DNA from: Oscillospiraceae bacterium
Lineage (GTDB): Bacteria > Bacillota > Clostridia > Oscillospirales > Oscillospiraceae
Length of the DNA: 64,000 nt
Direction of reading: 5' to 3'
Assembly (NCBI GenBank): GCA_017398625.1
Contig: JAFQFP010000003.1
Location: 456-64,455 of the forward strand
A program made the position numbers and the translations under genes. Positions 13,299-63,049 of this stretch are shown in pieces. Numbering within the stretch: the stretch's first letter is position 1; each line of letters begins with the position of its first letter. The notes under the pieces are model-generated. The model searched no databases, was not told the origin of the DNA, and saw nothing but the letters and a program-made list of their open reading frames with translations.

Positions 13299-14030
13299 AT
13301 GCAAAGCTGGGGTCTGACAGATCCGGGCTGCGTTCGTCCGCAGAACCAGGATGCCTACAAAATGGAATATCTGGACCGAAACACACTGCTGTGCGTAGTG
13401 TGCGACGGAATGGGCGGTGCCAAATCCGGCAACATTGCCAGTAAGCTGGCGGTGGATGTGTTCGTGGAGGAGATCAAGCAAACTTGGAAAAGCGGCATGG
13501 ACAGGGAAAAGACTGACCAGATGCTTTACGGGGCTGTGAAGCTGGCGAATTTCACCGTTTTTGATCAGGCGCAGCAGTTTGAGGAATTCTACGGCATGGG
13601 CACCACGCTGGTTGCAGTGCTGCTCAGCGGTAAGGATGCCACCTTAGTGAATGTGGGCGACAGCCGAGCCTACCGGGTGGACCGGGAGGGCATCCGACAG
13701 CTTACCACCGACCATTCTCTGGTGCAGATGATGGTGCAGCGGGGTGAGCTGACCCCGGAACGGGCAAAGACCTACCCGGGAAAAAACCTCATCACCCGTG
13801 CCATCGGCACAGAGCCGGTGGTGGAATGTGACCTGTTCCGCTGCAAGCTGGAACGGGGGGACTGCCTGCTGCTTTGCAGCGACGGCTTGTCCAACCTGCT
13901 GGATGAGCAGGAGATCCTGTTTGAAGTTGTACACGGTGTCAATATGGAAAGCTGCTGCCAGCGCCTGCTGGACATAGCCAAGGACCGTGGCGCGCCGGAT
14001 AATGTGACCAGTGTTCTGGTACAGGTTTGA
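13299..14030 (+). CDS. prpC: PP2C-type Ser/Thr phosphatase (PrpC/Stp1)
   Basis: R..NQD, CDGMGG, GMGTT, VGDSR, CSDGL, DNVT. Confidence 0.93.
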   Translation: MQSWGLTDPGCVRPQNQDAYKMEYLDRNTLLCVVCDGMGGAKSGNIASKLAVDVFVEEIKQTWKSGMDREKTDQMLYGAVKLANFTVFDQAQQFEEFYGMGTTLVAVLLSGKDATLVNVGDSRAYRVDREGIRQLTTDHSLVQMMVQRGELTPERAKTYPGKNLITRAIGTEPVVECDLFRCKLERGDCLLLCSDGLSNLLDEQEILFEVVHGVNMESCCQRLLDIAKDRGAPDNVTSVLVQV

Positions 14031-14056
14031 TCCCGGCTGCGAAAGGAGACGCGTTT

Positions 14057-46175: not shown

Positions 46176-46388
46176 TTACTGTGCCTTGGAGCAGCCTCCG
46201 CTGCAGCCTTGGCAGTTTCCGGAGCAGCCTCCGCTGCAGCCTTGGCAGTTTCCGGAGCAGCCTTCGGAGCACCGGTCGGCAGCGGGACAGCCAATGCACT
46301 TGACCCCACGCTTTTTGGCGCGGTAGACATACAGTCCCGCCAGCGCCACGATCACCAGAATGACCGCTATAATGATCAGATCTTCCAT
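46176..46388 (-). CDS. FeoB-associated Cys-rich membrane protein
   Basis: TM helix, KKRGVKCIGC, Cys-rich tail; immediately after feoB. Confidence 0.85.
   Translation of the reverse strand: MEDLIIIAVILVIVALAGLYVYRAKKRGVKCIGCPAADRCSEGCSGNCQGCSGGCSGNCQGCSGGCSKAQ
46188..46263. repeat. 33-bp perfect tandem repeat (about 2.3 copies)
   Basis: GGAGCAGCCTCCGCTGCAGCCTTGGCAGTTTCC x2 plus a partial copy. Confidence 0.9.
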
Positions 46389-49384: not shown

Positions 49385-49477
49385 AGTCCATTATAAATGC
49401 TAACGAATGCTCTACCCAACCGAAAACCGATTCGCCTAACGGAATAGGATTGCTCCACCCCCGAGCACCATTCCTTC
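49385..49477 (-). pseudogene. Decayed spoVAC-like 3' fragment
   Basis: From the GAAGGA core it reads EGMVLGGGAILFR*, versus EGFILGVGAKMFT in spoVAC; stop codons follow; distal boundary approximate. Confidence 0.55.
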
Positions 49478-49520
49478 TGCGCATGTCAAGCTAGGACCCA
49501 TCCCTTGGTGTTCTATTAGG
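49472..49520. repeat. Conserved att-like arm + core, copy A
   Basis: 41/49 ungapped identity (hand alignment) with 61033-61081; includes the core TCCTTC. Confidence 0.85.
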
Positions 49521-49691
49521 GAACATTTTTCTTATGAGGTGTCGATTTGACTCGAACCGAGTTCTTCAAAATTCTTATTCGGTTTTCTTTGAAGGGGTTC
49601 ATCTATTTCTTCAAAGGCACAGTCTACGATACATAGGTTGCCTTGTTTTAGGTTCCATGATAACCTGTTATTCAGAAAGGGCGTGATATTT

Positions 49692-50276
49692 ATGAACACC
49701 TATGTAGCAAGTACAACAATCAAGCACCTCCGGGAAATGCGGAATTTCACACAGGCTGATCTGGCGGATCGAGTCGGTGTCAGCAGCAAAACCATCTCCA
49801 AATGGGAGACGGCAAAAGGATTGCCGGATATCAGTCTGCTGCAGCCGTTAGCACAGGCGCTGGGCATCTCGGTCATTGAGCTGATGAGTGGTCAGCATAT
49901 TATTAACAAAAACATCTCTGCCAATATGCTGCGCAGCAAATTCTATGTCTGCCCTATCTGCGGCAATGCCATCCACGCGCTGGGAAATACTGTGGTCAGC
50001 TGCTGCGGCATTACTCTGCCTGCTCTGGAATCAGAAGAAGCGGGTGAGGACCATACAGTATCCATCGAGAATGTGGAGGACGAGCATTTTATCACTATCC
50101 ATCACCCTATGACGAAAGTACATTACATTTCCTTCGTAGCTTACGTCAGCTCAGATCGAATCCAGATGGTGAAACTCTACCCGGAGGGCAATGCCCAGAC
50201 CCGGCTGCAGTTGCGAGAAATGGGGTATCTGTATTATTACTGCAACCAGCATGGATTGTTCCGAATAAAGTATTAA
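49692..50276 (+). CDS. XRE-family HTH regulator fused to a desulfoferrodoxin-like domain
   Basis: TQADLA...SKWE...PDI; FYVCPICGN...SCCG; HPMTKVHYI; YCNQHGL. Confidence 0.88.
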   Translation: MNTYVASTTIKHLREMRNFTQADLADRVGVSSKTISKWETAKGLPDISLLQPLAQALGISVIELMSGQHIINKNISANMLRSKFYVCPICGNAIHALGNTVVSCCGITLPALESEEAGEDHTVSIENVEDEHFITIHHPMTKVHYISFVAYVSSDRIQMVKLYPEGNAQTRLQLREMGYLYYYCNQHGLFRIKY

Positions 50277-50307
50277 TGAAAACATCAAGGCATATAACAG
50301 AAGCAAA

Positions 50308-50343
50308 GCCCGGAATTGGAAGTATCCTCAACCAATTCCGGGC
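50308..50343. terminator. Bidirectional terminator
   Basis: GCCCGGAATTGG-loop-CCAATTCCGGGC. Confidence 0.8.
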
Positions 50344-50349
50344 ATGTTT

Positions 50350-51141
50350 TTATTTAACCGGTAGCTGAATCTCCGTCAGCCAGTCCTCTACATTTTCCTT
50401 GTTCCAGATACCGTCGATGTAGCTTTCCCGATGGAAGCCCGCCACCTGATATCCATTCTCCATAGCATAGCGGTAGATGTAGGCATAGGCCTCGCCTAGG
50501 CGGTCATAGGCACCCTTGTGGTAAATGCAGATGGCCTTGGTGGCAGGCAGAATCCGGAACTGAATTCGCTCATTTCCCACACCCATCTTTATCACCGCCT
50601 GAGAGTAACGGACACGCATATTGGTTTCCTTATGTTCCCCATCCAGATATTCGCAGAAACCATAGTCGGGTTTTACGCACTCCATACCCGGATTCAGCCG
50701 GAGACACTCCTGGGCAGATTCCAGCACCAGTATGGTCACATCGCTGTACCGCTCCAGAGTTCGTTCCTCACTGTAGACGATGCACTCTTCAATGTCTTTT
50801 ATCACGGCCTGATATTTCATTTCACTGTCCTCCATAAGATAGTTGATTATGGAGACGCGTGCGGAAATATCGGCCTGTTTTTGCATCAATGCCGTTTTCT
50901 TGGCACGAAGGGCATCCCTCAATGGAACGCCATTCAAATGCGCCCGGATTTCCTCCACGCTGAAATCAAGCTGCCGCAGTGCCTTGATGGTTGCCGCTGT
51001 TTCCAGCTGATTGGTCTCATAGAAACGGTAGCCTGACCATTCATCCACATAGGCAGGGATCAGCAGGTCCTCCTTTTCATAAAACCGCAAGGCTTTGATG
51101 GTCAGCATGGAAAGCTTTGAAAATTCACCGATTTTGAACAC
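50350..51141 (-). CDS. MerR-family regulator with GyrI-like effector domain (BltR/BmrR-like)
   Basis: FKIGEFSKL...LRFYE...GYRFY; HKGAY; TEIQLPV; GTG 51141 follows GGAGG. Confidence 0.92.
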   Translation of the reverse strand: MFKIGEFSKLSMLTIKALRFYEKEDLLIPAYVDEWSGYRFYETNQLETAATIKALRQLDFSVEEIRAHLNGVPLRDALRAKKTALMQKQADISARVSIINYLMEDSEMKYQAVIKDIEECIVYSEERTLERYSDVTILVLESAQECLRLNPGMECVKPDYGFCEYLDGEHKETNMRVRYSQAVIKMGVGNERIQFRILPATKAICIYHKGAYDRLGEAYAYIYRYAMENGYQVAGFHRESYIDGIWNKENVEDWLTEIQLPVK

Positions 51142-51162
51142 ACGCTTCACCTCCATGGCACT

Positions 51163-51193
51163 ATCGTAATCTATCCCCTAAGAGGAGAGTCAA
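51163..51193 (-). promoter_or_regulatory. MerR-type promoter with 19-bp spacer
   Basis: TTGACT-CTCCTCTTAGGGGATAGAT-TACGAT, imperfect dyad in the spacer. Confidence 0.75.
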
Positions 51194-51200
51194 GCATTAT

Positions 51201-52484
51201 TTAGTCCTCTAATCTCCAGATATGCTTATCTGCCCGGAAGATCAGGCATACACCGACTCCGGAAAGCCACAGTACCGCAAACAGGAACGCTGCACCGCTG
51301 CCTTTCCCTGAACCAAATAAACCAGCCAGAAAGCTTCCTATCCTCTGCGCTGCCATGATCGGTTCAAATACCTGATCCACCAGCAGTCCGCCGAGGAAGT
51401 ATCCTACCGGGATGGTAAAGAACTGAAAAGAGTTCCGGGCAGCAAAGACCCGCCCCTGAATTTCCACCGGGATATTCAACCGGTTGATAGCATCCAGATT
51501 TGCATTCATCCAAGGGATGGCGATCCAGCCCAGAGCTGCGCCAAAGCACCAGATCCATACATTGTTTCCGAAGGCAAGGAAGAAATTCTCCGTACACATG
51601 GAAAACATCAAGCAGCACCAAATTGTCTTGACCCGGCTTTTCGGTGTTTTCATAACAGAAGCCAGAATACTGCCTGCCAGCATGGTAATACCAACGACAG
51701 AATTGACAGTACCCATTGCTGCTTCCGAAGCCTTGGACAGCATCATGGCCGGGAATGCCGCATTATACATACTGGCTACCAGATTGATGGCAGCCAGAAA
51801 CAGAATCAGATGGAAGATGCCGGGATTGTGCTTCAGCCAGCGGATACCCTCTGCTGCGCTTTGCAGGACACTTTCCTGATTCTGTTCCGACTTGATCTTG
51901 GGAATGGGGATAAAAAACAGCAGAACTATAAATGCAATCAAAAAACTGATCAGATCGATGGCGATGACCGTATCGATTCCCCATAGGCCCATGATTGCCG
52001 TTGTGGTAATGGGGGTCAGAATGGAATTTAAGGAATTGGATAAGTATCGCAAGCCGCCCACCTTCTGATAGAACTTCCGGGGAAGGAGAGCTGTGGTTGC
52101 AACCTCGGATGCAGGCTGCTGGACCGTATTCATCAGTCCGGAAGCCGCATTGACGAGGTACAGATGCCAAATCCGCAGTGCATCATTTTTCAGCAGCAAC
52201 AGCACGATGAGCGTGCTGAGTGCTGCCAGGGCATCGCAGACCAGCATGGTTTTCTTCTTATCCCAACGGTCGCTGAGAGCACCGGCAAAGATGCTGCAGA
52301 TCACATAGGGGGCATAGGAACAGACCATCAGCAGCGCCGTCTGCAATGCAGATCCTTCCTGTGTATAGGACCAAATTACCAGCGCATAGGCGGTCATGGC
52401 GCTGCCAAGGCTGGAGATCATTTGTGTGAACCAAAGCAGCAGATAGCTGCGCATTTCTTTAAGATCGTTTCTATGGTTTTTCAT
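51201..52484 (-). CDS. MFS efflux transporter (DHA3/Mef-like)
   Basis: LW.TQ.IS.LGS.MT, GALSDRWDKK..M..CD, QGRVF; about 12 TM helices; AAGGAG RBS before ATG 52484. Confidence 0.9.
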   Translation of the reverse strand: MKNHRNDLKEMRSYLLLWFTQMISSLGSAMTAYALVIWSYTQEGSALQTALLMVCSYAPYVICSIFAGALSDRWDKKKTMLVCDALAALSTLIVLLLLKNDALRIWHLYLVNAASGLMNTVQQPASEVATTALLPRKFYQKVGGLRYLSNSLNSILTPITTTAIMGLWGIDTVIAIDLISFLIAFIVLLFFIPIPKIKSEQNQESVLQSAAEGIRWLKHNPGIFHLILFLAAINLVASMYNAAFPAMMLSKASEAAMGTVNSVVGITMLAGSILASVMKTPKSRVKTIWCCLMFSMCTENFFLAFGNNVWIWCFGAALGWIAIPWMNANLDAINRLNIPVEIQGRVFAARNSFQFFTIPVGYFLGGLLVDQVFEPIMAAQRIGSFLAGLFGSGKGSGAAFLFAVLWLSGVGVCLIFRADKHIWRLED

Positions 52485-52564
52485 TTTGACTTTGCTCCTT
52501 TTATATTTTTGTAATTCTACGAAAGCAAAGCCGAAGGCGTCATTATTTCTCCATGCTGCCCGCC

Positions 52565-52606
52565 TTATTCGGCCTTGCATGGAGCATTCGCAATGCAGAG
52601 CATCAT
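52565..52606 (-). other. 13-aa mini-ORF MMLCIANAPCKAE (candidate leader peptide) upstream of the MFS gene
   Basis: GGAGG RBS, ATG 52606, TAA 52567-52565; overlaps a CTCCATGC/GCATGGAG hairpin. Confidence 0.4.
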
Positions 52607-52704
52607 ATATAATTCCTCCGTATTCTTTTTCGATTGTCCGATATTATTTTGTTATCATGCCAAATGAATGTTTACTAACGAACTTTCCGCGTCTGCAATA
52701 ACCA

Positions 52705-53160
52705 TCATTTATATTTGCAGGTTCTGAATTTTTCTTCGATCCAGAAGGTGGCTTCGATGGTATGGAAATGAATCAGGCGGAATTTGGGATCGTCAAGGCC
52801 TTTCTTGAAAAACTTCCGGTCTGCTTCCTTCCAGATACTTTCCTGTGTTGCCCTGTCCTCGATGAATTCTACATTTCCGATCAGGGTCACAGAGTCCCCA
52901 CCGAGGAAATAGCAAACACTGGCCTTGGGATTGGTTTCAAAATGGGTAGCTTTTCCGTTAATGGCAGAGCGCTTGGAGGTTACGAAATAAATATCCGAAA
53001 ATCCGTCCGCCTTGGCAATGGACATCACGCAGGTTCGGGGATAACCCTTTTCGTTGATGGATGTGAGAGTTGCCACATTGCACTTTGCAATCAGTGCATT
53101 TGCTTTGGCTTCCAATTCTTTGATTCTCTCTTTCTGAATTTGACTTGCCGTTTTTTCCAT
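52705..53160 (-). CDS. Pyridoxamine 5'-phosphate oxidase-like (general stress protein 26) FMN-binding protein
   Basis: LTSINEKGYPR, NPKASVC, W....FF..G.DDP. Confidence 0.85.
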   Translation of the reverse strand: MEKTASQIQKERIKELEAKANALIAKCNVATLTSINEKGYPRTCVMSIAKADGFSDIYFVTSKRSAINGKATHFETNPKASVCYFLGGDSVTLIGNVEFIEDRATQESIWKEADRKFFKKGLDDPKFRLIHFHTIEATFWIEEKFRTCKYK

Positions 53161-53172
53161 AACATCATCCTC

Positions 53173-54156
53173 CTAAAACGCGGTCAGCAGCTTTGCTGTC
53201 AGCGTTTCCACATGCTCCTCCAGCCATCGGAGCAGTTTCGTGGAAAATACCGCCTGATGCAGATATATATGGCGGTTATCTGCGGTGGAAGCGTAATACT
53301 GCCCGTAGTAATCGCACACGGCGATCTGGCAATAAAACAGCCGTGCCATGCAGAGCAAATCGCATTCATTCAGGGGCGCAAACTTTCGATACTCTGCCAC
53401 ATATCGCAGGAATTCGTCCATGTCGATCTGCCCATCCTTACAGGAAGGTGCAGCATAGACATAGGAACGGACGATTTCCCATACTACTGGGTGGACACAT
53501 GCAGTGGTCCAGTCGATGACTGCGTTAATCTTTTCATCGCCACAGATGATCTGACTGATGAAATAATCGCCGTGGGTAGCACAGCAGGTCAGCTTTTCCA
53601 AGTCAAATTCGTATGCCGGGAAACGCCGCATCAGATCGATGCGATACTGTAGGTCTGCGATAATCTCTGTGTCATTTTGGCTTTCTGCGATGTTCAAGGA
53701 CTTTTGGTAGGACAACAATGCCCGGTCCGGGGTCATATACTTGAAGAAATTCGCTCCAATCCCAACAGTCAATCCCGGACAATCCCTTAATGCGGCATGG
53801 ATCTGACCCAGCATATGCGCCGATTCTGTCAGCAGCCAATCCGGAGCGGCATTCAGCTCAAACATCTTCCCTTCGATGAAGCGCTGGACATGGAACAGCC
53901 TGCCAGATTCATCCGTAGTCAGAAAATGACCTTCTTTGTTCCGAAGGAACTGACATACCGGAATGCCATGAGCAAGCAGGTATTCACACAGCTCCGGCTC
54001 CGCTTCCGGATGGTTGATCTCACTGGAAGCCGGGTATTTCACCACATATTTCCCATCAGCACAGGAAACGAAGTATGTATCGGAACCAGCGCCAACACCT
54101 GATTTTTCAATTTTTGTAGTTTCCAAGCCATAAAGATGTTTCAAACGTGTATTCAT
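53173..54156 (-). CDS. APH/choline kinase-like phosphotransferase
   Basis: LGQIH, HGDY, VIDW. Confidence 0.85.
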   Translation of the reverse strand: MNTRLKHLYGLETTKIEKSGVGAGSDTYFVSCADGKYVVKYPASSEINHPEAEPELCEYLLAHGIPVCQFLRNKEGHFLTTDESGRLFHVQRFIEGKMFELNAAPDWLLTESAHMLGQIHAALRDCPGLTVGIGANFFKYMTPDRALLSYQKSLNIAESQNDTEIIADLQYRIDLMRRFPAYEFDLEKLTCCATHGDYFISQIICGDEKINAVIDWTTACVHPVVWEIVRSYVYAAPSCKDGQIDMDEFLRYVAEYRKFAPLNECDLLCMARLFYCQIAVCDYYGQYYASTADNRHIYLHQAVFSTKLLRWLEEHVETLTAKLLTAF

Positions 54157-54157
54157 T

Positions 54158-54865
54158 TCATTTTTTCCTAACAATCATACCCACAAAATTGGTGTACAGT
54201 CTGATAATCTGCTCCCAGCAGGCAGCATCACCCTTGGCAAATTGATTGTCCATTACCAGCCAGTCCTGCCATGCCGCTTCGAAACAGTCCAGTTCAAAGA
54301 CTTCTACGGACACCATATCCGGATCCTCACCCAAGATCTTCTTCCATTGCCGGACACTGCGGAACATATACGCTTCCTTGCCAAGCCAGGGAAACAGCAG
54401 TTCGATGGTTTGCTCATCGTATTCTTCTTTGATCCCCGGCACACCAAGCAGGGCAACACCGCCACTTTTCAGAAAAGGCAGGATCTTCTCCTGAAAATAG
54501 CCTTCTTTTCCCGCAAAATAGTGGTAGGAATCGATGCTGACAATGGCATCGAAGCTTTCCTTCTCAAAGTTCAGGTTGTCCGCATTCTCGTGAACCGGTG
54601 TCACGCAATCTCCCACACCCCATGTGGCAAACCGGGCAGCGTTTTCCTCTCCACTGATCCAGAGATCATTTGCCAGAACCTTTGCGCCGGTTTCCCTGCA
54701 CAGAGCAAAGCTAGTCAAGCCCGTGCCGCAGCCAAGATCCAGAATCAGGCTGTCCGCGCCCAAAGATTTTGGATTCTTATCCAACAGTTCCTTAAGAACC
54801 CGCAGGCTGTTGGGGCCCATGAGATAGTCCTTCGTAAAATAGGGTCTGTAAAATTCCAGATTCAT
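54158..54865 (-). CDS. Class I SAM-dependent methyltransferase
   Basis: MGPNS, LDLGCGTG, FDAIVSIDSYHYF. Confidence 0.9.
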   Translation of the reverse strand: MNLEFYRPYFTKDYLMGPNSLRVLKELLDKNPKSLGADSLILDLGCGTGLTSFALCRETGAKVLANDLWISGEENAARFATWGVGDCVTPVHENADNLNFEKESFDAIVSIDSYHYFAGKEGYFQEKILPFLKSGGVALLGVPGIKEEYDEQTIELLFPWLGKEAYMFRSVRQWKKILGEDPDMVSVEVFELDCFEAAWQDWLVMDNQFAKGDAACWEQIIRLYTNFVGMIVRKK

Positions 54866-54879
54866 TTGATCATTTCCTT

Positions 54880-55284
54880 TCATTTTCGGGCAAAGGGCCG
54901 GTTGAAGGAGCCAATTTCGATAAGATTTCCTTCCGGGTCAGCAATGTAGCAGGTTCTTTGACCCCAGCATTCCGTCTCCGGTGCTAGGACGGAAATCGCG
55001 CCCTTGGCAATCGCATCGGCATAGGCTTTGTCCACCTCTTCAAAGGTGTCCACATACAGAGCAATCTCGAAATGGCCGTTGAGCCCCTTGATGTACTCGT
55101 ACCGGCGGCTGGTCATGTTTTCAAAATCCTTCCTTCCATACAGAAGGAACAGCGTTCCGTCCTTGACAAGATACACATTGCCGGCATCTTCGCTCTCTCG
55201 AATCTCAAAGCCCAGCACATCCCGGTAAAAACGGATCATACGGCCCATATCCTCTACAAACAATCCAAATCCATCCAGCTTCAT
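54880..55284 (-). CDS. VOC/glyoxalase-family protein, copy 1
   Basis: FYRDVLGF, WGQRTCYIADPEGNLIEI. Confidence 0.92.
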   Translation of the reverse strand: MKLDGFGLFVEDMGRMIRFYRDVLGFEIRESEDAGNVYLVKDGTLFLLYGRKDFENMTSRRYEYIKGLNGHFEIALYVDTFEEVDKAYADAIAKGAISVLAPETECWGQRTCYIADPEGNLIEIGSFNRPFARK

Positions 55285-55302
55285 TTGATTACCTTCGTTG
55301 TT

Positions 55303-56235
55303 TCACTTTCGTATCATTTTGAACATTCCAGCCCCATCCCAGTCGCAGGGGCGCTGATCAAATCCAAATCTTTCGTAAAAGGGTTCTCTGCCCTTGGAAC
55401 TGATCAGTTCCAGACTGACTGCCCATCCGTTGGGAATGTGGGACATAATGTATTCTTCAATTGCAGTCATCAGCAGACTCCCAACACCTTTTCCCTGATA
55501 CTCCGGACGAACCGCAAAATCCTTGATATAAAAGGACATGCCGCCGTCACCCAATAGCCGCGCCATCCCCACAGGCTGTTCGCCGTCGTAGGCGCAGAAG
55601 GTGGCAAAGCTATGCTCCAGCGCCATTGTGATCTGGTCAAGGTCCGGTGCTTCCCAGCCTACGGACCGGTACAGCTCCAGAAACAGTTCTGGATATAAGG
55701 TGTTGATTTTTACATTCATTGTGTTGGTTCTCAAAATTGGGCATACCATCTGAATATCATATGGCTCCGCCTCTGCAATCTCTGGGATCGGATCATCGGT
55801 GGGTACAGCACCCATGGCTTTATAGAAGTTCACCGTTTCCTCCGAACAGCAGGCAGAGATGTACAGCTCCTTCGCACCGGCTCTTTTTGCCTCCGCAACG
55901 GCCAGAGTAAATAGCTGCCTACCGATTCCTTGCCCCCGGAAAGCCCGATCAACCTGGATGATGTCCAGCACCATTCGGCATCCAATCAATGCTTTCATCA
56001 CGCTGACAAATCCGATGACTTTTTCGTTCTCCCATACCGCATATGCGATACAGTCATCGGATTTCAAGTTGGTAGCAACTTTCCGCTTATGCTTTAGGCT
56101 CCAGTCCATGGTCCATATCTGATCTTTCAGGCGAAGACTGCCGCTGTCATTGATATAGACACGCTTAACTTCCTGAGAGCGGTCAAAATCATCCAGATTT
56201 ATAAAGTGCGTTTCCCTTATCTTCTCAAACTTCAT
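55303..56235 (-). CDS. Tandem double GNAT acetyltransferase (apparent in-frame fusion)
   Basis: Two acetyl-CoA motifs (RGQGIG, YQGKGVG); second domain starts at internal MNVKINTL (about 55718). Confidence 0.85.
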   Translation of the reverse strand: MKFEKIRETHFINLDDFDRSQEVKRVYINDSGSLRLKDQIWTMDWSLKHKRKVATNLKSDDCIAYAVWENEKVIGFVSVMKALIGCRMVLDIIQVDRAFRGQGIGRQLFTLAVAEAKRAGAKELYISACCSEETVNFYKAMGAVPTDDPIPEIAEAEPYDIQMVCPILRTNTMNVKINTLYPELFLELYRSVGWEAPDLDQITMALEHSFATFCAYDGEQPVGMARLLGDGGMSFYIKDFAVRPEYQGKGVGSLLMTAIEEYIMSHIPNGWAVSLELISSKGREPFYERFGFDQRPCDWDGAGMFKMIRK

Positions 56236-56253
56236 TCGATATGCCCTCTGTCG

Positions 56254-57231
56254 TTAACGATCCATCGTACTTTCCAAATAGCGCAGTTTACTCCGCAGCC
56301 GCTTTACCAGATGTTCCATCCATTCCGGCGGATCTGCGACCGGTTCCGACAGGCAGTGACGGAGCCGAGCATAGGAATATAGATTGATAAATCTGCGCAT
56401 CAGAGGCATGGATGCTTCCATTTCCTCCGTAAAGGCATGGTGCGTCCGATAGCCTTTCAGAAACTGTTCCTTCGCTTTTTGCAGTGCGTCCCCTTCAAAG
56501 AATTCCGTCAGGCAGTCAAAGACCTGCTCCACATCCAGCGCAAACCAGTGGTACATTCCATCATCAAAATCAATGACGCTGCACTGATGATTTTTAACAT
56601 CCCAAAATACGTTGTCCGGTTCGAAATCATAATGAACAAGGCCAAAGTTTTCTTCCGTTTTGGGAAGCAGCTTCAACAAATCGGATACTATGCCCAATTC
56701 CCGGCGCACCGGCTCCGGAACATCTTCTGCAGCAAATTCCTCATACATGACTTCAAGCACATCCGCATAGGAGGATTTTTTAACGGATGGAGTAAAGCTC
56801 TGTGACAGGCTGTGCAGCCGTCCAAGGGCAGCACCGTATTCGTACAGCACCGCATCGTCCATTTCTACATCCTCCAACGGTTTCCCTGCAACGCGCCGGA
56901 AGGCACAGGCATAGTATCTGCCCCAAGGGGTATCCATAGAAAAGCAGTAAGTACCATCCCTTGCCGGAATCGGCTCCATGGCAGGATAGCCGCAGGAACG
57001 CAGATACCGGATAAACTCGATTTCTCCCTGAATATCATGAAAATTCTTCTCTTCCGCAGGCGCGAGACGAAGGAAGCAAAGTTCACCGCCGCAGAAGAAA
57101 GGATACACCGCATTGGCGGAAATACGGAACCATGAAAGGGCTTCGTCCAACCGTTCCATATCGTGCTTGTAATTCTGCAATACATATTTTGCAAGCTCAA
57201 AATTCTCGAACATATACTTTAGCTTCAGCAT
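56254..57231 (-). CDS. APH/choline kinase-like phosphotransferase
   Basis: LGRLH, FGLVHYDFEPDN, IDFDD. Confidence 0.87.
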   Translation of the reverse strand: MLKLKYMFENFELAKYVLQNYKHDMERLDEALSWFRISANAVYPFFCGGELCFLRLAPAEEKNFHDIQGEIEFIRYLRSCGYPAMEPIPARDGTYCFSMDTPWGRYYACAFRRVAGKPLEDVEMDDAVLYEYGAALGRLHSLSQSFTPSVKKSSYADVLEVMYEEFAAEDVPEPVRRELGIVSDLLKLLPKTEENFGLVHYDFEPDNVFWDVKNHQCSVIDFDDGMYHWFALDVEQVFDCLTEFFEGDALQKAKEQFLKGYRTHHAFTEEMEASMPLMRRFINLYSYARLRHCLSEPVADPPEWMEHLVKRLRSKLRYLESTMDR

Positions 57232-57241
57232 ATTCTGGTTC

Positions 57242-57481
57242 TCATTTCTCCTTCCGAATACACATGCCAATTGCCATGCCGACTAACATACCAAGGGACA
57301 GCCCGTTACCGCCCAAGGCAGCACCCACACACATCCCAAGGCACATACCTTCGGTCATGTAGTTACCGTATTCCTTGTCGCTGTCTTTTGCGTTCTTTGC
57401 CGCACTGTGGTTCGCCGCAAACAGGGCAATTGCGATACCAATACAAATCCATGGCAATGCAGCCATCATAAATTCTTTCAT
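57242..57481 (-). CDS. Small Gly-rich membrane protein
   Basis: ALPWICIGIAIA, EGMCLGMCVG, GMLVGMAIG; AAGGA RBS. Confidence 0.75.
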   Translation of the reverse strand: MKEFMMAALPWICIGIAIALFAANHSAAKNAKDSDKEYGNYMTEGMCLGMCVGAALGGNGLSLGMLVGMAIGMCIRKEK

Positions 57482-57492
57482 GCTATTTCCTT

Positions 57493-58062
57493 TCAGGGAC
57501 AGGGAACATTCAGCAAAGCTTTTACCATCCATGCCATATTCCGTCCCAGGTTGTATGCGATTTGCATCCCCTCTGTATCGTCCCGGACTTCATCGGGTGT
57601 ATTTCCATGGACCATGCACCAGTAGCTGGAGGATACCAGCGGCTGTTCGTTCACCATCGGATACTTATGCAGTACCTCCAGTGCAGCAGTGGTTCCAGCC
57701 CGGCGGGCAGACACGATGCAGCCGCAGGGCTTGTACATCAAGCTGTTCCCGTGGGCGGCATACAGCCTGTCTAAGAAAGAAATCAGACTGCCACTGGGGG
57801 AAGCAAAGTACACAGGAGAGCCTATAATCATACCGTCGGCAACTTTTAATTTTTCTGCAATTTCGTTTACCCCATCATCGATTACACATTTTCCTAACTT
57901 CCGGCAGGCGAAGCAGCCCCTACAGCCGGCGATACCATGGGTTCCGATGTGTATGATTTCCGCGTCCGCCCCATGGTCATTCAAACCTCCGGCAACCTCA
58001 AAAAGAGCCGTGTATGTACACCCCCGCTCATGGGGACTGCCGTTGATCAGGATCACTTTCAT
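57493..58062 (-). CDS. Flavodoxin-like iron-sulfur flavoprotein (NADPH-dependent FMN reductase family)
   Basis: INGSP...G.T, GCRGCFACRKLGKC, GSPVYF. Confidence 0.9.
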   Translation of the reverse strand: MKVILINGSPHERGCTYTALFEVAGGLNDHGADAEIIHIGTHGIAGCRGCFACRKLGKCVIDDGVNEIAEKLKVADGMIIGSPVYFASPSGSLISFLDRLYAAHGNSLMYKPCGCIVSARRAGTTAALEVLHKYPMVNEQPLVSSSYWCMVHGNTPDEVRDDTEGMQIAYNLGRNMAWMVKALLNVPCP

Positions 58063-58065
58063 ATT

Positions 58066-58503
58066 TTACATCTCCTTGCACAGAAACAGTACATGCTCGC
58101 AATCTATAAACCCCAGCTTTTTATAAAACTGCCGCGCAGGCGCATAGCGGTTTGTAGAGAGCGTAATGCCTGCCAGCGAATTTTCCTGCACATACTGCTC
58201 CACGCGCTTTATAAGCATGGCACCGTAGCCCCTGCCCTGATGCGACTGCTTCACGAACAGCTCCTCAACATACACCTCGCTGCCTGACCACCACACTTTT
58301 TCCCGAGCTAGAAGTCCGCCAAGGATCGCACCATCTTCTTCGATGACATAGCCAAGGAATTTCGGCATATTGAAAATATCTGACAGGTATTCCATTGCCG
58401 TGGCTTGTTCCCAACGGTTCTGCCACAGATCATTGTTGTATACACTGCACAGGATACCGGCGCAGGCGGCAATATCGCCTGATTTCATTTCTCTTACCTG
58501 CAT
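58066..58503 (-). CDS. GNAT acetyltransferase
   Basis: EELFV, HQGRGYG, FYKKLGF. Confidence 0.9.
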   Translation of the reverse strand: MQVREMKSGDIAACAGILCSVYNNDLWQNRWEQATAMEYLSDIFNMPKFLGYVIEEDGAILGGLLAREKVWWSGSEVYVEELFVKQSHQGRGYGAMLIKRVEQYVQENSLAGITLSTNRYAPARQFYKKLGFIDCEHVLFLCKEM

Positions 58504-58508
58504 AGCCT

Positions 58509-59174
58509 TCACTCCAGTCCAAAATGTACTGCCAGAGCAGCAAGGGTCTGCTGCCTTGTATCTGTTTGTATATCTTCTCTTATCAATGTAAAGAATCCGC
58601 TGTTTGCAAAGGCATTGTAATGCTCCGGGCTGTTTACCCTGGCGATGCAGGCTCTGAAATTGGCAAGAGTCTTTTTCGGGTCGGGGCAGCTGCGGATCAC
58701 CGACAGCAAAAACTGCTTTTCGGGATCGCCGCGGTCAAAAAACTTATCCACCGACATAGACTGGGGCGACAGCATGACCGCAACGCGGCTGTAATCCGAT
58801 ATTTCCCGGAGCACATCACAGGAAATGTTGGTGTCCACGATCACTTTCCCATGGGCAGACAGCCGGATCAGCTCCGCGATCTCAAACCCGGTCACTTCCT
58901 CCACCGTTCCCAGATACCAGCGCTCATATTCCTCCGGTCTGCGGCTCACATAGGCCTGCCAGTCGATCTTATTGTTAAAGTAATTCAGATTCGGCTGCGC
59001 CTCCTGGGTAACCACCGACAAGACTTGATCCATATTGTAGTTTTCTTCGCAGTGGATCATGCCGTATTTTTCCGCCAGCATGGCACACATGGTGGATTTT
59101 CCCGCATAGACCGTTCCGGTGATGAAGTAGCAGTTTTTCAGGTAATGTTTGAGAATATTATTTTGAATTTCCAT
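58509..59174 (-). CDS. P-loop NTPase/kinase-like protein
   Basis: YFITGTVYAGKST Walker A; nucleoside-kinase-like length. Confidence 0.8.
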   Translation of the reverse strand: MEIQNNILKHYLKNCYFITGTVYAGKSTMCAMLAEKYGMIHCEENYNMDQVLSVVTQEAQPNLNYFNNKIDWQAYVSRRPEEYERWYLGTVEEVTGFEIAELIRLSAHGKVIVDTNISCDVLREISDYSRVAVMLSPQSMSVDKFFDRGDPEKQFLLSVIRSCPDPKKTLANFRACIARVNSPEHYNAFANSGFFTLIREDIQTDTRQQTLAALAVHFGLE

Positions 59175-59229
59175 TTTGTTCCTTATAGCCGCCACCCGTT
59201 GGCGCAATGCATATACTTTCCGCAGTTTT

Positions 59230-59631
59230 TTACCGCAAAAACGGTCTGTTAAAGGAGCCGATCTCGATCAGATTTCCCTCCGGGTCAGAAATGTAGCAGG
59301 TTCGCTGACCCCACGGCTCTGTGGTGGGCGCCAGCACAGAGCCGGCACCGGCGGCTATGGCTTTACGGTACTCTTCATCCTCTTCCTCAAAGGTATCCAC
59401 ATACAGGGCAATCTCAAAATGACCGTTCAACCCTTGGAGATATTCATATTTCCGTCTGGTCATGTTCTCAAAATCCTTTCTGCCATATAGCAGGAAAAGC
59501 GTTCCATCCTTTACGAGATACACATTGGATGTATTTTCACCCTCCTTGATCTCAAAGCCCAATACATCCCTGTAAAAGCGGATCATCGCCGCCATATCGT
59601 TTACAAACAATCCGAATCCATCCAGTTTCAT
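59230..59631 (-). CDS. VOC/glyoxalase-family protein, copy 2
   Basis: About 110/133 identical residues (hand count) with 54880-55284. Confidence 0.92.
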   Translation of the reverse strand: MKLDGFGLFVNDMAAMIRFYRDVLGFEIKEGENTSNVYLVKDGTLFLLYGRKDFENMTRRKYEYLQGLNGHFEIALYVDTFEEEDEEYRKAIAAGAGSVLAPTTEPWGQRTCYISDPEGNLIEIGSFNRPFLR

Positions 59632-59646
59632 TTTGGTTCCTCCTGA

Positions 59647-60174
59647 TTATTTTAGTGGGAATTCCAGTTGTATGTCTCTGGGGTCTTCTGCCTGAAGTGT
59701 CTGGTTTGGCTCCGCAGCTGCCCTGCAGCCCAGCTTTCCATAAAAAGCGATGGTGTTCTCCGAAGAACCGGCACAGAGATAGATTTTCTTTGCACCAATA
59801 CTACGAGCCCGCTCCGCGCATAAAACAAACAGAGCCTTGCCGATACCCCGTCCACGATAAGGATTTGAAACGAAAAGCTGATCCAGCAGCACATAACCCT
59901 GTTGCCCGAAAACACTGCCTTCCACGGTAGCATAACCTACCAGCATACCGCCATCAAAGCAGCCAAAGGCTGTGCCGCCATTGGCAAGGGTATTTCGGAA
60001 GTGCCGCAAATGCCATGCATACCCATTGGGCAGTTCCCGGTCTGTCCAGTTGATTTCGGTAAGCTGATACTCCCCCGAGCCATCCCTGCGCCAGACATTC
60101 TTTATAAAATTGGTGGCATCGATCTCAGCGATCCGTTCCGCTTCCTCAACCTGAAGCGTTCTGTATTGCAGCAT
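59647..60174 (-). CDS. GNAT acetyltransferase
   Basis: YRGRGIG, IYLCAGSSENTIAFY, EDPRDIQLE. Confidence 0.9.
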   Translation of the reverse strand: MLQYRTLQVEEAERIAEIDATNFIKNVWRRDGSGEYQLTEINWTDRELPNGYAWHLRHFRNTLANGGTAFGCFDGGMLVGYATVEGSVFGQQGYVLLDQLFVSNPYRGRGIGKALFVLCAERARSIGAKKIYLCAGSSENTIAFYGKLGCRAAAEPNQTLQAEDPRDIQLEFPLK

Positions 60175-60190
60175 AGGGGATTCTCCTTAA

Positions 60191-60808
60191 TTATTTCTCC
60201 ATCTTGGGAACAGGCGTGGGCATATTCATTCTGCCGGATTTGGCATAGAATAGCATGGCCATAAAATCCTGTCCCAACATTTGGATGATCTCCTCCTGAG
60301 AGAACCGGCACATGCCGGTGGCACACAGAGCGCCAATGCCGAAAGTATAGATCCAGACGTGTTCAAAAAGTGCCTTGGCATCTTTTTCGGAAAGGCTGTA
60401 ATCCCGCTGAATCACATCCACGCAAAGCTGTGCCACATCGCCCAGCCGCTCTACAATGCCCTCAAAATTCGTGGCACCGGCATTTTCCGACATATACACC
60501 AACTGATACAGCTTCGGCTCCTCCATGGCGAAGAGGATCATCTGCATACCCACCTGCTTAAAAACCGGAGTATAGTGCATGGCTTTCTCGGCATAACCTT
60601 CAAACCGTTTCAAGGCAGCAGAGCGAACCTCCCCCTGCACTTCCTCCATGGAATTGAATACCGTAAAAATCGGACGGGCGGAGCTGCCCAGTCTGGCACC
60701 CAGCTCCCGGGCGGTCAATGCCTCGATTCCCTTTTTGCTGACCAGCTCCAGTGCGGCAGCAACGATTTCCTCTTTTGTAAACTTCGGCTTGGGAGGCATA
60801 TGCATCAT
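60191..60808 (-). CDS. TetR/AcrR-family regulator
   Basis: MPPKPKFTKEEIV...LTARELG..LG.S..PIF. Confidence 0.92.
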   Translation of the reverse strand: MMHMPPKPKFTKEEIVAAALELVSKKGIEALTARELGARLGSSARPIFTVFNSMEEVQGEVRSAALKRFEGYAEKAMHYTPVFKQVGMQMILFAMEEPKLYQLVYMSENAGATNFEGIVERLGDVAQLCVDVIQRDYSLSEKDAKALFEHVWIYTFGIGALCATGMCRFSQEEIIQMLGQDFMAMLFYAKSGRMNMPTPVPKMEK

Positions 60809-60815
60809 CCTTTCT

Positions 60816-60872
60816 AAAACTATCGTTTTGCATCATTTGTTTTAATATAAACCAAATTACGGAATTTGTCAA
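60816..60872 (-). promoter_or_regulatory. Near-consensus sigmaA promoter plus dyad operator at the head of the cargo operon
   Basis: TTGACA-N17-TATATT (60872-60844); AAAAC-N4-GTTTT at 60816-60829. Confidence 0.75.
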
Positions 60873-60875
60873 CAA

Positions 60876-60908
60876 AAAATAAATCGGCTGTGCCCGTCGG
60901 GCACAGCC
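60876..60908 (-). terminator. Terminator following the spare spoVAC 3' end
   Basis: GGCTGTGCCC-GAC-GGGCACAGCC then GATTTATTTTTT on the minus strand. Confidence 0.8.
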
Positions 60909-60915
60909 AGTCTAT

Positions 60916-61038
60916 TTAGAAGCAGGTCGTACAAATCCAATAAACAAGCCCATAGACTACACTCGCAGACACACCGTACACGATAACAGGCCCGGCGATG
61001 GTGAACATTTTCGCGCCTACCCCCAAAATGAATCCTTC
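60916..61038 (-). pseudogene. Displaced, still in-frame spoVAC 3' fragment (40 codons + stop)
   Basis: Translates EGFILGVGAKMFTIAGPVIVYGVSASVVYGLVYWICTTCF*; first 31 aa identical to the intact spoVAC; no 5' part. Confidence 0.92.
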
Positions 61039-61081
61039 TGCGTGTGTCCAGTTAGGACCCATATATTCGTGTTCTATTAGG
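61033..61081. repeat. Conserved att-like arm + core, copy B
   Basis: TCCTTCTGCGTGTGTCCAGTTAGGACCCATATATTCGTGTTCTATTAGG; direct repeat of 49472-49520. Confidence 0.85.
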
Positions 61082-61126
61082 ACAAATTTAGCCGCATAAA
61101 GGTAAATATTCGCGAATAAGCAGCAG

Positions 61127-61156
61127 AACAGGCTTACCTATCGGCAAGCCCGTTCC
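61127..61156 (-). terminator. Hairpin after the module 1 cargo gene
   Basis: Minus strand GAACGGGCTTGCC-GATA-GGTAAGCCTGTTC. Confidence 0.6.
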
Positions 61157-61161
61157 TTTCA

Positions 61162-62454
61162 TCATCTTAATCGTTTTGCTGCCATGCGGCGAATATCGTC
61201 GTTACTGTCATACAGACTTTCTTCCAAAATCTCCTTCGTTAGCATCCGGTGTTTGGACATATACACCAGCACAGATTCCCGGCAGAAAGAGCAGGGAGTA
61301 TATTCATATAAAAGTGGCAACAGATGCTTTGGGTGGGGGATGACACTATCTCTGCGAAATGCCCGGCGAACATCCATTCCTGCTGCATGAATCTCATCCC
61401 AATTCTTTTTTGAAATCAGATCTTTCAAAATAGATTCCAGCAGCATAGCATCTTCGGGAATATAGTTCGTTACCAACAAGGCAAAGTTTTCAAATGTCCG
61501 GTTACCTTTCGTAGCGTTATTATGAGCAAAGTCCCGAACGGCAGGATGACGCAGATTTTCCAATGCCTGCCAAGCGGTTCTCCTCAGTTTTTCATCCACA
61601 GACAGGGTATCCTCCAGAATAGGGCTGGGATCCCCAGGATAAGGGCACCATGTGAAGGCTTCCAATGCTTTTGCCTTGGCTTCCGGCACTGTTTGCTTCT
61701 GGTAGTCGTGGGCATAGCGCTCCACTGTTTCGCTGTCTGCCTTTTTCGCAAGCCAGCGGGAAAGACGGAATCCGGTCAGATTATCTTCGGGTTTCTCTGT
61801 CCGCTGCTGCCTGAATCTCTCCTGAGCATCGATATCTGCCTGCTCTCTTTTCATAAAGCAAGCGATATTCTCGTTTTTTCGTGCAGCGGCTTCCATGGTT
61901 CTTCTGTATTGTCCTCCCTTGGATGAAAAGAACCACGCAAAATCTCCATCGTACATGTATTTCTTTTCTCGATACAGACGACCAAAGTCCCCCGCTATTC
62001 TCAGAAAGGACTTGCTGTCAACAGCCAATACCAAACCAAGCTGCTCTAAATCCGACAGTTCGTGAAATACACGGTTTGGTCTGCGTTTCCTCGCAAACAT
62101 CCCCGTCAGTACTTCCTTATATTTCTCCTCCAAAGCATTTCGGGCAGATTCATAGCCGTCCATCGCAAAGAACATCAGGATTTCACTCAAGTGCAGCAAA
62201 TCCCAACTACCATTAGGTCGATACCGTTTGAGTGCATCTGCCGTAGCGTCAATAAAGGTTTCCTTATCGGGATAGGCATTTACCATCGTATAGGTATACC
62301 ACGACCTTGTGCCCTCACTTTGGGCATCGTAAGCAAAATTTCTTTTGCAAGCCCAAAGTACAATATCACGATATTTCTCCGGTTCTTTCCTGACAGCGAT
62401 CACGCATCTGCCAAGGCCACGGAGCATAGCTTCTTTGAAATCTTTTTTCGTCAT
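61162..62454 (-). CDS. Hypothetical alpha-helical protein (possible HEAT-like repeats)
   Basis: 430 aa from ATG 62454 (GGAGG RBS); GLGRC, AYDAQSEGTR and PCSFCR motifs; no family recognised with certainty. Confidence 0.75.
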   Translation of the reverse strand: MTKKDFKEAMLRGLGRCVIAVRKEPEKYRDIVLWACKRNFAYDAQSEGTRSWYTYTMVNAYPDKETFIDATADALKRYRPNGSWDLLHLSEILMFFAMDGYESARNALEEKYKEVLTGMFARKRRPNRVFHELSDLEQLGLVLAVDSKSFLRIAGDFGRLYREKKYMYDGDFAWFFSSKGGQYRRTMEAAARKNENIACFMKREQADIDAQERFRQQRTEKPEDNLTGFRLSRWLAKKADSETVERYAHDYQKQTVPEAKAKALEAFTWCPYPGDPSPILEDTLSVDEKLRRTAWQALENLRHPAVRDFAHNNATKGNRTFENFALLVTNYIPEDAMLLESILKDLISKKNWDEIHAAGMDVRRAFRRDSVIPHPKHLLPLLYEYTPCSFCRESVLVYMSKHRMLTKEILEESLYDSNDDIRRMAAKRLR

Positions 62455-62473
62455 ATAACCTCCGGTAAAACTC

Positions 62474-62524
62474 TTATTTTGCCGGAACCTTTCCGGCGGT
62501 TTCCAAACTACAATGTACAAGCAT
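62474..62524 (-). other. 16-aa mini-ORF MLVHCSLETAGKVPAK with strong RBS
   Basis: AAGGGAGGTG RBS, ATG 62524, TAA 62476-62474; internal hairpin GCCGGAA-AGG-TTCCGGC. Confidence 0.4.
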
Positions 62525-62566
62525 AGAAAACACCTCCCTTATTGTTATGAAATAATTGTATCATAA

Positions 62567-62606
62567 GAAAAAGTACACCGCAACCAAAATGATTGCGGTG
62601 TACTTT
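62567..62606 (-). terminator. Terminator of spoVAC
   Basis: AAGTACACCGCAA-loop-TTGCGGTGTACTTTTT. Confidence 0.85.
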
Positions 62607-63049
62607 CAAAATAAAGTTGTTATCCAATAAATGAGTCCATACACCACGCTGGCAGATACACCGTAGACGATGACGGGCCCGGCGATGGTGAACATCTTCG
62701 CGCCGACTCCGAGAATGAATCCTTCGGTTTTGAATTCCACCGCAGGGGCGGCAACGGAATTGGCAAAGCCCGTGATGGGCACCAGTGTTCCGGCTCCCGC
62801 CACCTTGGCAATATCATCATACACACTGAGCCCCGTCAGAAGTGCCGACAGCGCTACCAGTGTCATTGACCCTGCCGTGCTTGCCATTTCCTTCTCCATT
62901 CCCAAGGCTGTGTAGCCGTTGATCAGAAGCTGTCCCAGCGCACAGATCAGCCCTCCGATCCAAAACGCGTTCAGGCAATCCTTCTTCACAGGAGACTTAG
63001 GCGCCATTTCCTTTACAATGCGCTGATACTGTTTTTCCGTCATGTCCAT
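62606..63049 (-). CDS. spoVAC: Stage V sporulation protein AC
   Basis: AFWIGGLIC, YD.IAK.AGAGTLVPITGFANS, EFKTEG.ILGVGAKMFTIAGPVIVYG. Confidence 0.96.
   Translation of the reverse strand: MDMTEKQYQRIVKEMAPKSPVKKDCLNAFWIGGLICALGQLLINGYTALGMEKEMASTAGSMTLVALSALLTGLSVYDDIAKVAGAGTLVPITGFANSVAAPAVEFKTEGFILGVGAKMFTIAGPVIVYGVSASVVYGLIYWITTLF

Follow-up and report, generated by a model that had tools for sequence, protein, structure and literature searches.

A recombinase-free gene-cassette array at the spoVAC insertion site of a putative integrative and conjugative element in gut Clostridia

The window analyzed here (64,000 nucleotides from an Oscillospiraceae bacterium, assembly GCA_017398625.1, contig JAFQFP010000003.1, positions 456 to 64,455 of the forward strand) raises the question of how a series of gene cassettes came to stand in tandem behind the sporulation gene spoVAC with no recombinase among them. 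An earlier note, made from the letters of the window alone, had proposed an integron-like array served by an enzyme acting in trans. The array is real and widespread. It occupies the target site of a putative integrative and conjugative element (ICE) that carries three serine recombinase genes and is termed the helper ICE below. The preferred reading, to which a probability of about 0.6 is assigned, is that the array was built by carriage of cassettes in cis with this ICE and is refilled by homologous recombination.

The features of the array are given below in the order in which they are met on the minus strand (att, attachment site; ORF, open reading frame; arm, the conserved motif that precedes each spare copy of the spoVAC 3' end).

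62606..63049, minus strand: spoVAC, intact, 147 aa (PF03862, E 4e-44)
62724..62725, minus strand: GA crossover dinucleotide of an attB-type site (B-GA-B'), at the codon position where the left junction of the ICE lies in 5 of 5 genomes that bear it
62606..62725, minus strand: 3' copy 1, the expressed spoVAC end
62571..62605, minus strand: terminator-like hairpin 3' of the spoVAC stop, read from the sequence; related hairpin in loci L340 and L075
61039..62725, minus strand: unit 1, a single-gene cassette of 1,687 bp, in a whole-unit family with L033_1 (76% nucleotide identity) and L419_2
61162..62520, minus strand: unit 1 cargo ORF, 452 aa (most homologues 430 aa), without a Pfam family
61125..61156, minus strand: terminator-like hairpin 3' of the unit 1 gene
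61039..61083, minus strand: first arm, equal to the P half-site of the ICE, with the inner half-site at 61058-61039 and an outer repeat 25 bp upstream
60916..61038, minus strand: GA core and 3' copy 2, intact and in frame; an attR-type junction
49478..61038, minus strand: unit 2, 11,561 bp
60844..60909, minus strand: opening of unit 2, with a terminator-like hairpin (60909-60885) and a sigma-70-like promoter (60872-60844)
50350..60808, minus strand: 15 co-directional cargo ORFs of unit 2
49638..50276, plus strand: XRE/desulfoferrodoxin-like gene, oriented away from the arm
49478..49520, minus strand: second arm, inner half-site 49497-49478
49436..49477, minus strand: GA core and decayed 3' copy 3

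The layout described in the earlier note (spoVAC, arm-plus-core repeats at 61081-61033 and 49520-49472, three 3' ends, and core-to-core distances of 1,687 and 11,561 bp) was confirmed. So was its statement that the units encode no recombinase or transposase: none of the 17 cargo ORFs in the window matched such a family in Pfam. The 15 genes that it had counted in unit 2 are indeed co-directional, but the oppositely oriented XRE gene raises the number of ORFs to 16. The 15 comprise a TetR, three GNAT, two glyoxalase-like, two APH-like phosphotransferase, an FMN reductase, a methyltransferase, a PNPOx-like, an MFS transporter, a MerR/GyrI, an AAA-like and one unknown gene. The array, at 0.47-0.51, is poorer in G+C than the flank, at 0.53-0.59. 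When the arms were scored with a profile derived from 271 sites in other genomes, the two in the window reached E-values of 7e-15 and 3e-8; the profile revealed no hidden extra site within unit 2 and, in the rest of the genome, no further arm site below E 0.3. The hairpin behind spoVAC is common to the same cassette in other hosts. A sequencing run that contains a related strain (X5) had low depth of it over the flanks and unit 2 and left the unit 1 gene uncovered, which is a hole in coverage and no evidence.

The earlier note had placed the enzyme elsewhere and had suggested a search for a recombinase beside the arm in relatives; a triplet of serine recombinase genes was found there. Three IMG/VR contigs carried a DUF6870 ORF, three large serine recombinase genes and then, directly, the arm. 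The gap from the third recombinase gene to the arm was 42-142 bp in 26 of 26 loci, and a close relative of this recombinase occurred in 4 of 300 same-genus genomes, followed each time by the arm and a spoVAC end. The first and third recombinases share 31% identity. In one genome (G440) the whole element lies on a single contig and extends over ca. 117.6 kb between the spoVAC 5' part and the arm; its genes include VirB4-like, VirD4-like, TrbL-like, NlpC/P60, adhesin, YqaJ, RecD2 and primase-like ones. No relaxase family was recognized in its 83 ORFs, and the label “ICE” is therefore putative. In all five ICE-bearing genomes spoVAC was truncated, and the left junction consisted of the spoVAC 5' part, GA and an inverted counterpart of the arm motif. 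In L021 and G608, more cassettes stand behind the ICE. Among the metagenome loci, 24 of 124 (L263-L336) contained the ICE recombinase, mostly of one near-identical type with a single spoVAC end and no cassette behind it; arrays occur in other hosts.

In the genome of the window, which is 69% complete, the search for relatives of the triplet returned only three single serine recombinases of at most 33% identity (G000:C14, C22 and C35; L446-L448), which are large and unrelated to the spoVAC triplet; DUF6870 was not found there, but the search control likewise gave no match. Viral contigs yielded no recombinase relative other than the query itself and 0 matches to the junction pattern of an excised ICE. 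The left-junction pattern gave 55 matches in them, none near spoVAC, and these were set aside as chance. Two further observations concern the ICE. In G563 (L189, G563:C32:7480-22080), the ICE is followed by 14.6 kb with citrate-lyase-, fumarate-hydratase- and glutamate-mutase-like genes (named by sequence appearance) and then by a further spoVAC end; this stretch may be a captured chromosomal block. The element of G440 encodes a protein with a Spo0A C-terminal domain (L170:3376-3825), which might couple ICE excision to sporulation.

With the ICE junctions in hand, the sites of the array could be read. The left and right junctions together make up what, by its sequence, is a symmetric serine-integrase attP with a GA core, in the order arm, GA, inverted arm. 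The crossover core is thus the GA dinucleotide and not GAAGGA, as had been thought earlier. The 49-bp arm also required revision: the repeats are present, but the outer repeat occurs in just 34 of 164 arms, and the essential half-site is the inner ca. 23 bp. Because the ICE brings no spare gene end, an arm followed by GA and a 3' end corresponds to attR, and the intact gene to attB; on this assignment the window array reads attB, attR, attR. Each cassette ends in an attR-type junction like that at the right side of the ICE. The suggested search for the arm across genomes tied it to the gene, the spoVAC 3' start standing directly behind 268 of 278 distinct arms. Arms that were found through the spoVAC protein search, i.e. 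without the motif, showed the ICE-symmetric motif with 0-1 mismatches in several families.

The spread of the array was assessed by both routes. When 40 relatives were searched for SpoVAC, nine proved to have additional 3'-only copies (7 of 24 in the same genus and 2 of 16 others), and the arm precedes such copies in the loci that were fetched. Of 300 same-genus genomes, 94 contained a 25-letter arm pattern (0 control matches), as did 4 of the 400 genomes in a family-wide sample (1 control match); the array is thus patchy. A partial scan of species genomes found the same pattern in 147 stretches (estimated total, about 410), and 128 metagenome stretches contained it as well. Named records belong to Faecousia, other Oscillospiraceae, Acutalibacteraceae, Lachnospiraceae and unclassified Clostridia; Faecousia is probably also the genus of the window. 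An empty site in a close relative was not among the fetched loci, none of which matched the window flanks. The gene upstream of spoVAC in the window is a Na/H exchanger, and the upstream neighbors differ among hosts. In this genus (G000 and the same-genus loci) spoVAC stands apart from spoVAD and spoVAE; no spoVAE-like match was obtained in the 69%-complete G000.

The units form a common pool. A first set held 108 core-to-core units with a median length of 1.29 kb, 70 of them with one ORF. In an enlarged set, from which identical contexts were dropped, 238 units lay on 135 contigs (median 1.3 kb; 186 no longer than 2 kb, 8 exceeding 5 kb), with at most seven arms per array. When families were defined by coverage of at least 80% of both interiors, 98 of the 238 units fell into 40 families common to several contigs, and a neighbor was shared in 0 of 47 comparisons. 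Units 94-99.6% identical stand in different arrays beside different neighbors, and near-identical cassettes occur in records of different named families (e.g. L035_2 and L049_1, 94%). The cassettes move and assort independently between arrays, as the earlier note had supposed of non-autonomous units. The unit 1 gene also occurs in L098; unit 2, the largest unit of the first set, had no whole-unit match. No serine or tyrosine recombinase was found among 177 cargo ORFs, nor any recognized transfer gene (the Pfam scan covered the first 108 of the 238 units). The same ORFs gave four Y1_Tnp matches and one reverse transcriptase; other cargo comprised Wadjet, type I restriction, HNH, immunity, sugar and hydrolase genes and many unknowns. 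A promoter-like module stands just inside the arm in 114 of 238 units and 81 of 180 cargo families (0 in shuffles); it faces spoVAC and precedes a ribosome-binding site and an unrelated ORF.

Two side observations belong here. Complete defense systems were noted among the cargo of L073, L098, L032 and L096 (Wadjet, type I restriction-modification with Mrr, reverse transcriptase and HNH nuclease). In L075 (oriented 13,300-14,770) the unit 1 gene, its hairpin and a promoter lie ca. 1.2 kb past the last arm without att sites, so that cargo exists outside the slots too.

What is shared between arrays was delimited in 14 pairs, not all independent, whose cargo was at least 93% identical. The first 72 nt of the preceding 3' copy matched in just 1 of the 14 pairs, and 13 fell below 0.93 in both of its first 36-nt windows; the earlier proposal that a cassette carries its whole replacement end as a unit was not upheld. 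The left limit of the shared sequence lay in the distal part of the spare end, at a variable position. On the right side, arm identity reached 0.92 or more in 10 of 14 pairs, and identity sometimes ended in the promoter. Third-position identity in shared cassettes was 0.37 over the first third, compared to a background of 0.39, and 0.62 over the last third, compared to 0.47. Movement from GA to GA would make the spare end match wherever the cargo matches; as this was so in 1 of 14 pairs, recombination must be added. The variable left limits, the right limits in the promoter and the likeness of copies within one array (0.79, versus 0.70 between arrays) bear, as sequence patterns, the marks of homologous recombination in conserved flanks.

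The spare ends record their own history. Copy 2 differs from the expressed end in 16 of its first 35 codons, 15 of the 16 differences being synonymous; copy 3 resembles spoVAC over ca. 9 codons and then stops. Intact copies made up 105 of 105 expressed ends, 118 of 140 internal copies and 67 of 107 last copies, counts that include kin and are not independent. A distal position is older on average, and the earlier observation that the distal copy is the most decayed held across arrays. Arm-preceded intact copies within arrays gave proportions of synonymous and nonsynonymous differences (pS and pN) of 0.71 and 0.08, although the pre-filter for an intact frame itself lowers pN. By these measures the spare ends appear to be under purifying selection and to have served as the coding end during much of their history. 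Duplication of the target by the host was ruled out as their source, for even where the cargo is recent, the copies on either side of it are on average 82% alike. A comparison of the expressed end with the host gave a rho of 0.12, the hosts being too divergent for it; in a single case (L174 and L176), identical spoVAC 5' parts bear different expressed ends. A G+C-rich palindromic insertion of ca. 105-140 bp was seen at a fixed point after codon 12 of spare ends in 14 loci (among them L001, L017, L076, L093, L187, L286, L396 and L399); it looks REP- or MITE-like (repetitive extragenic palindrome; miniature inverted-repeat transposable element), and the Y1_Tnp genes carried by four units, which resemble REP-associated tyrosine transposases, are candidate partners.

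The preferred reading combines these findings as follows. Placed at the head of an array, an ICE would excise between attL and any downstream attR and so carry along at least one cassette. Upon arrival in a new host it would integrate by attP x attB and later exit via the first attR, which would drop the cassette beside the gene, the spare end repairing spoVAC. Such a shuttle in cis would require ordinary serine-integrase reactions alone, namely attP x attB and, with a directionality factor, attL x attR, as shown for GirC of gin (PMC5595907). Once slots exist, crossovers in the conserved flanks (in the spare-end tail on the left and in the promoter, the arm or beyond on the right) could swap cargo between arrays with no recombinase. 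Since spare ends would rotate into the expressed position, selection for a working SpoVAC would act on them there and keep them translatable. Precedents are the joint transfer of tandems of cis-mobilizable elements (CIMEs) and ICEs (PMC5704250) and the excision of the staphylococcal cassette chromosome (SCC) element SCCmec alone or with ACME (arginine catabolic mobile element; PMC7029739).

Several points weigh against this reading, in addition to the missing relaxase match and the pre-filter on pN. Under pure delivery in cis the cargo should be accompanied by its whole spare end, as was the case in just 1 of 14 pairs; in one pair (L392 and L427), the shared block extends through the next copy and gene. 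The ICEs of L021, G608 and G563 are near-identical (97-99% in the third recombinase) yet have different units behind them, and no case of the same ICE-cassette pair in two hosts was found. In 24 of 26 ICE loci no second arm was seen in the available DNA behind the ICE (<400 bp in several), so that the ICE often exists without cassettes. All data come from metagenome assemblies in which kin are not independent. The first entry of a new gene between terminator and promoter lies outside the proposed explanation.

One alternative is that an old ICE left the first arm and that arrays have since grown, shrunk and exchanged cargo by homologous recombination, with the recombinase now idle. The varying left junctions, the right ones that sometimes lie in the promoter, the greater likeness of copies within an array and the short identical tracts in common would all follow, and the recombinase is present in just 4 of 300 genomes; an ICE-encoded YqaJ-like exonuclease could aid short-homology recombination. 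The conservation of the arm motif across several families, however, suggests continued recognition by a recombinase, and ICEs with intact triplets occupy the heads of arrays. This alternative is considered unlikely.

Rather less probable is the scheme of the earlier note, in which free circles (arm, core, 3' end and cargo) are inserted at attB by the triplet in trans. The small, mostly single-gene units, their independent assortment and the distal decay fit it. Pairing might also be relaxed, the division of labor among the three recombinases not being given in the available parts of the papers. For several homologues of the unit 1 gene, the contig measures 1,686-1,692 bp, which is the size of the unit; contigs broken at the flanking repeats would, however, be equally long. 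A free circle would carry attR and hence need non-canonical pairings for excision (attR x attR) and integration (attR x attB). Ordinary serine integrases are not known to perform either. The spare end does not move as a whole together with the cargo, the 124 metagenome loci had no terminal overlap, and the units have no recognized transfer genes. The junction of a circle and the empty site, for which the earlier note had advised a search, yielded no joint at the cores in contigs, which drop rare forms, and the genome of the window seems to be without the helper ICE; an arm joined to copy-1-like sequence in contigs was of another arm variant and likely from other organisms.

That the units are immobile, each being what deletion has left of its own earlier ICE insertion, is very improbable. 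CIMEs do arise by ICE decay (PMC5704250), and unit 2 is large and ICE-cargo-like. This idea is largely refuted by the 94-99.6% identical units in different arrays; moreover, the ICE brings no spare 3' end, so decay could not restore spoVAC and leave a new copy, and one promoter module is common to 114 of 238 units.

An assembly artefact at the short repeats can practically be dismissed, even though all sources are metagenome assemblies and contigs often break at the repeats, given that the copies differ by about 15-30%, that the layout recurs in 135 contigs and that all three window junctions are bridged, with at least 31 bases per side and even depth, by separately assembled Logan contigs (from runs that are possibly the source of the window and thus not independent support), which makes the mis-assembly named in the earlier note unlikely.

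Among known systems, CIME accretion and composite SCC islands come closest to the array. CIMEs share with it integrase-less tandems at one att site, the newest at the target gene, and undergo co-transfer in cis with an ICE (PMC5704250), as is proposed here for the cassettes. They are decayed elements that keep attL and attR (PMC5704250), whereas the array units keep attR-type junctions only and start with a spoVAC 3' copy rather than the P' arm of the ICE. The units are, like a CIME, without integrase or transfer genes (in the first 108) and bounded by the att sites of an ICE at the same target; they differ in being mostly single genes of 0.5-2 kb, up to seven per array, in drawing on a cross-family pool and in having a spare coding end. 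SCCmec, ACME and COMER (an element for resistance to copper and mercury) at rlmH likewise have serine recombinases and tandem modules between repeated att sites, and the first element there excises alone or with the next module, as in the proposed shuttle (PMC7029739). SCC modules are tens of kb long, however, the helper ICE has a putative type IV secretion module, and the recombinases differ. SCC insertion leaves rlmH intact, whereas the helper ICE breaks spoVAC.

The helper ICE itself resembles the streptococcal ICEs with a serine-integrase triplet, which disrupt mutT, traG and hsdM (PMC4701971), in its three tandem serine recombinase genes at one end, 2-bp core, disrupted target and putative conjugation genes. 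It differs from them in its target, the forespore gene spoVAC, and in the DUF6870 ORF before the triplet; the small-cassette arrays found behind it are not described for the streptococcal ICEs in the available part of that paper. Like skin, SPbeta and gin, it is a serine recombinase element within a sporulation gene, and gin also has three recombinases, but girC lies apart from girAB (PMC5595907), unlike the tandem triplet. Intervening elements of sporulation genes lie almost all in mother-cell genes (PMC6957869) and spoVAC is sigma-G dependent in C. difficile (PMC3789822), which makes the helper ICE an exception. The window differs from skin and gin in that spoVAC is whole with no intervening element; the gene is split in ICE-bearing genomes. 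The earlier suggestion of replacement rather than excision therefore stands for the cassettes and fails for the ICE. No report of spoVAC as an insertion site was found in the literature searched, including the available part of PMC6907783 (subscription papers and bioRxiv supplements lay outside its scope), and the term SpoVA was absent from the eight supplementary files of PMC10083194.

Integrons consist of intI, attI and attC, with a resident tyrosine integrase, hairpin attC sites and promoterless cassettes read from a promoter at attI. The array shares with them one anchor site, tandem, mostly single-gene cassettes each with a site, independent assortment from a shared pool and older cassettes in distal positions. 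Unlike them, it has no resident integrase beside the primary site, a serine rather than a tyrosine enzyme and no hairpin attC, and its cassettes have their own promoter, most of them reading towards the anchor. A broader view is tentatively offered, with rather more doubt than confidence: that this is an integron analogue with a traveling integrase, in which an enzyme-less chromosomal array relies on a conjugative element with three serine recombinases that would pair any of its sites, a standard slot of promoter and ribosome-binding site captures unrelated single genes (81 cargo families), and spare ends at a forespore-gene anchor would make rearrangements safe for the spore.

About a third of the sampled same-genus gut genomes carry the array, which also occurs in several clostridial families; it would represent a sizeable, apparently undescribed route of single-gene exchange, with defense systems, sugar enzymes and detoxification- or resistance-like genes as cargo. 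Its attB, attL and several attR sites constitute a natural substrate set for the roles of the three recombinases of triplet ICEs, and the interruption of a forespore gene by the ICE runs contrary to the mother-cell rule. The common promoter slot makes the birth of gene cassettes testable in a second system, and the recombinase with its defined site could become an integration tool for gut Clostridia.

Two minor features of the window were also recorded. The two glyoxalase-like genes of unit 2 (54892-55191 and 59239-59538) are 74% identical, and an exact 33-bp tandem repeat (46188-46253) lies in a small Cys-rich ORF after feoB.

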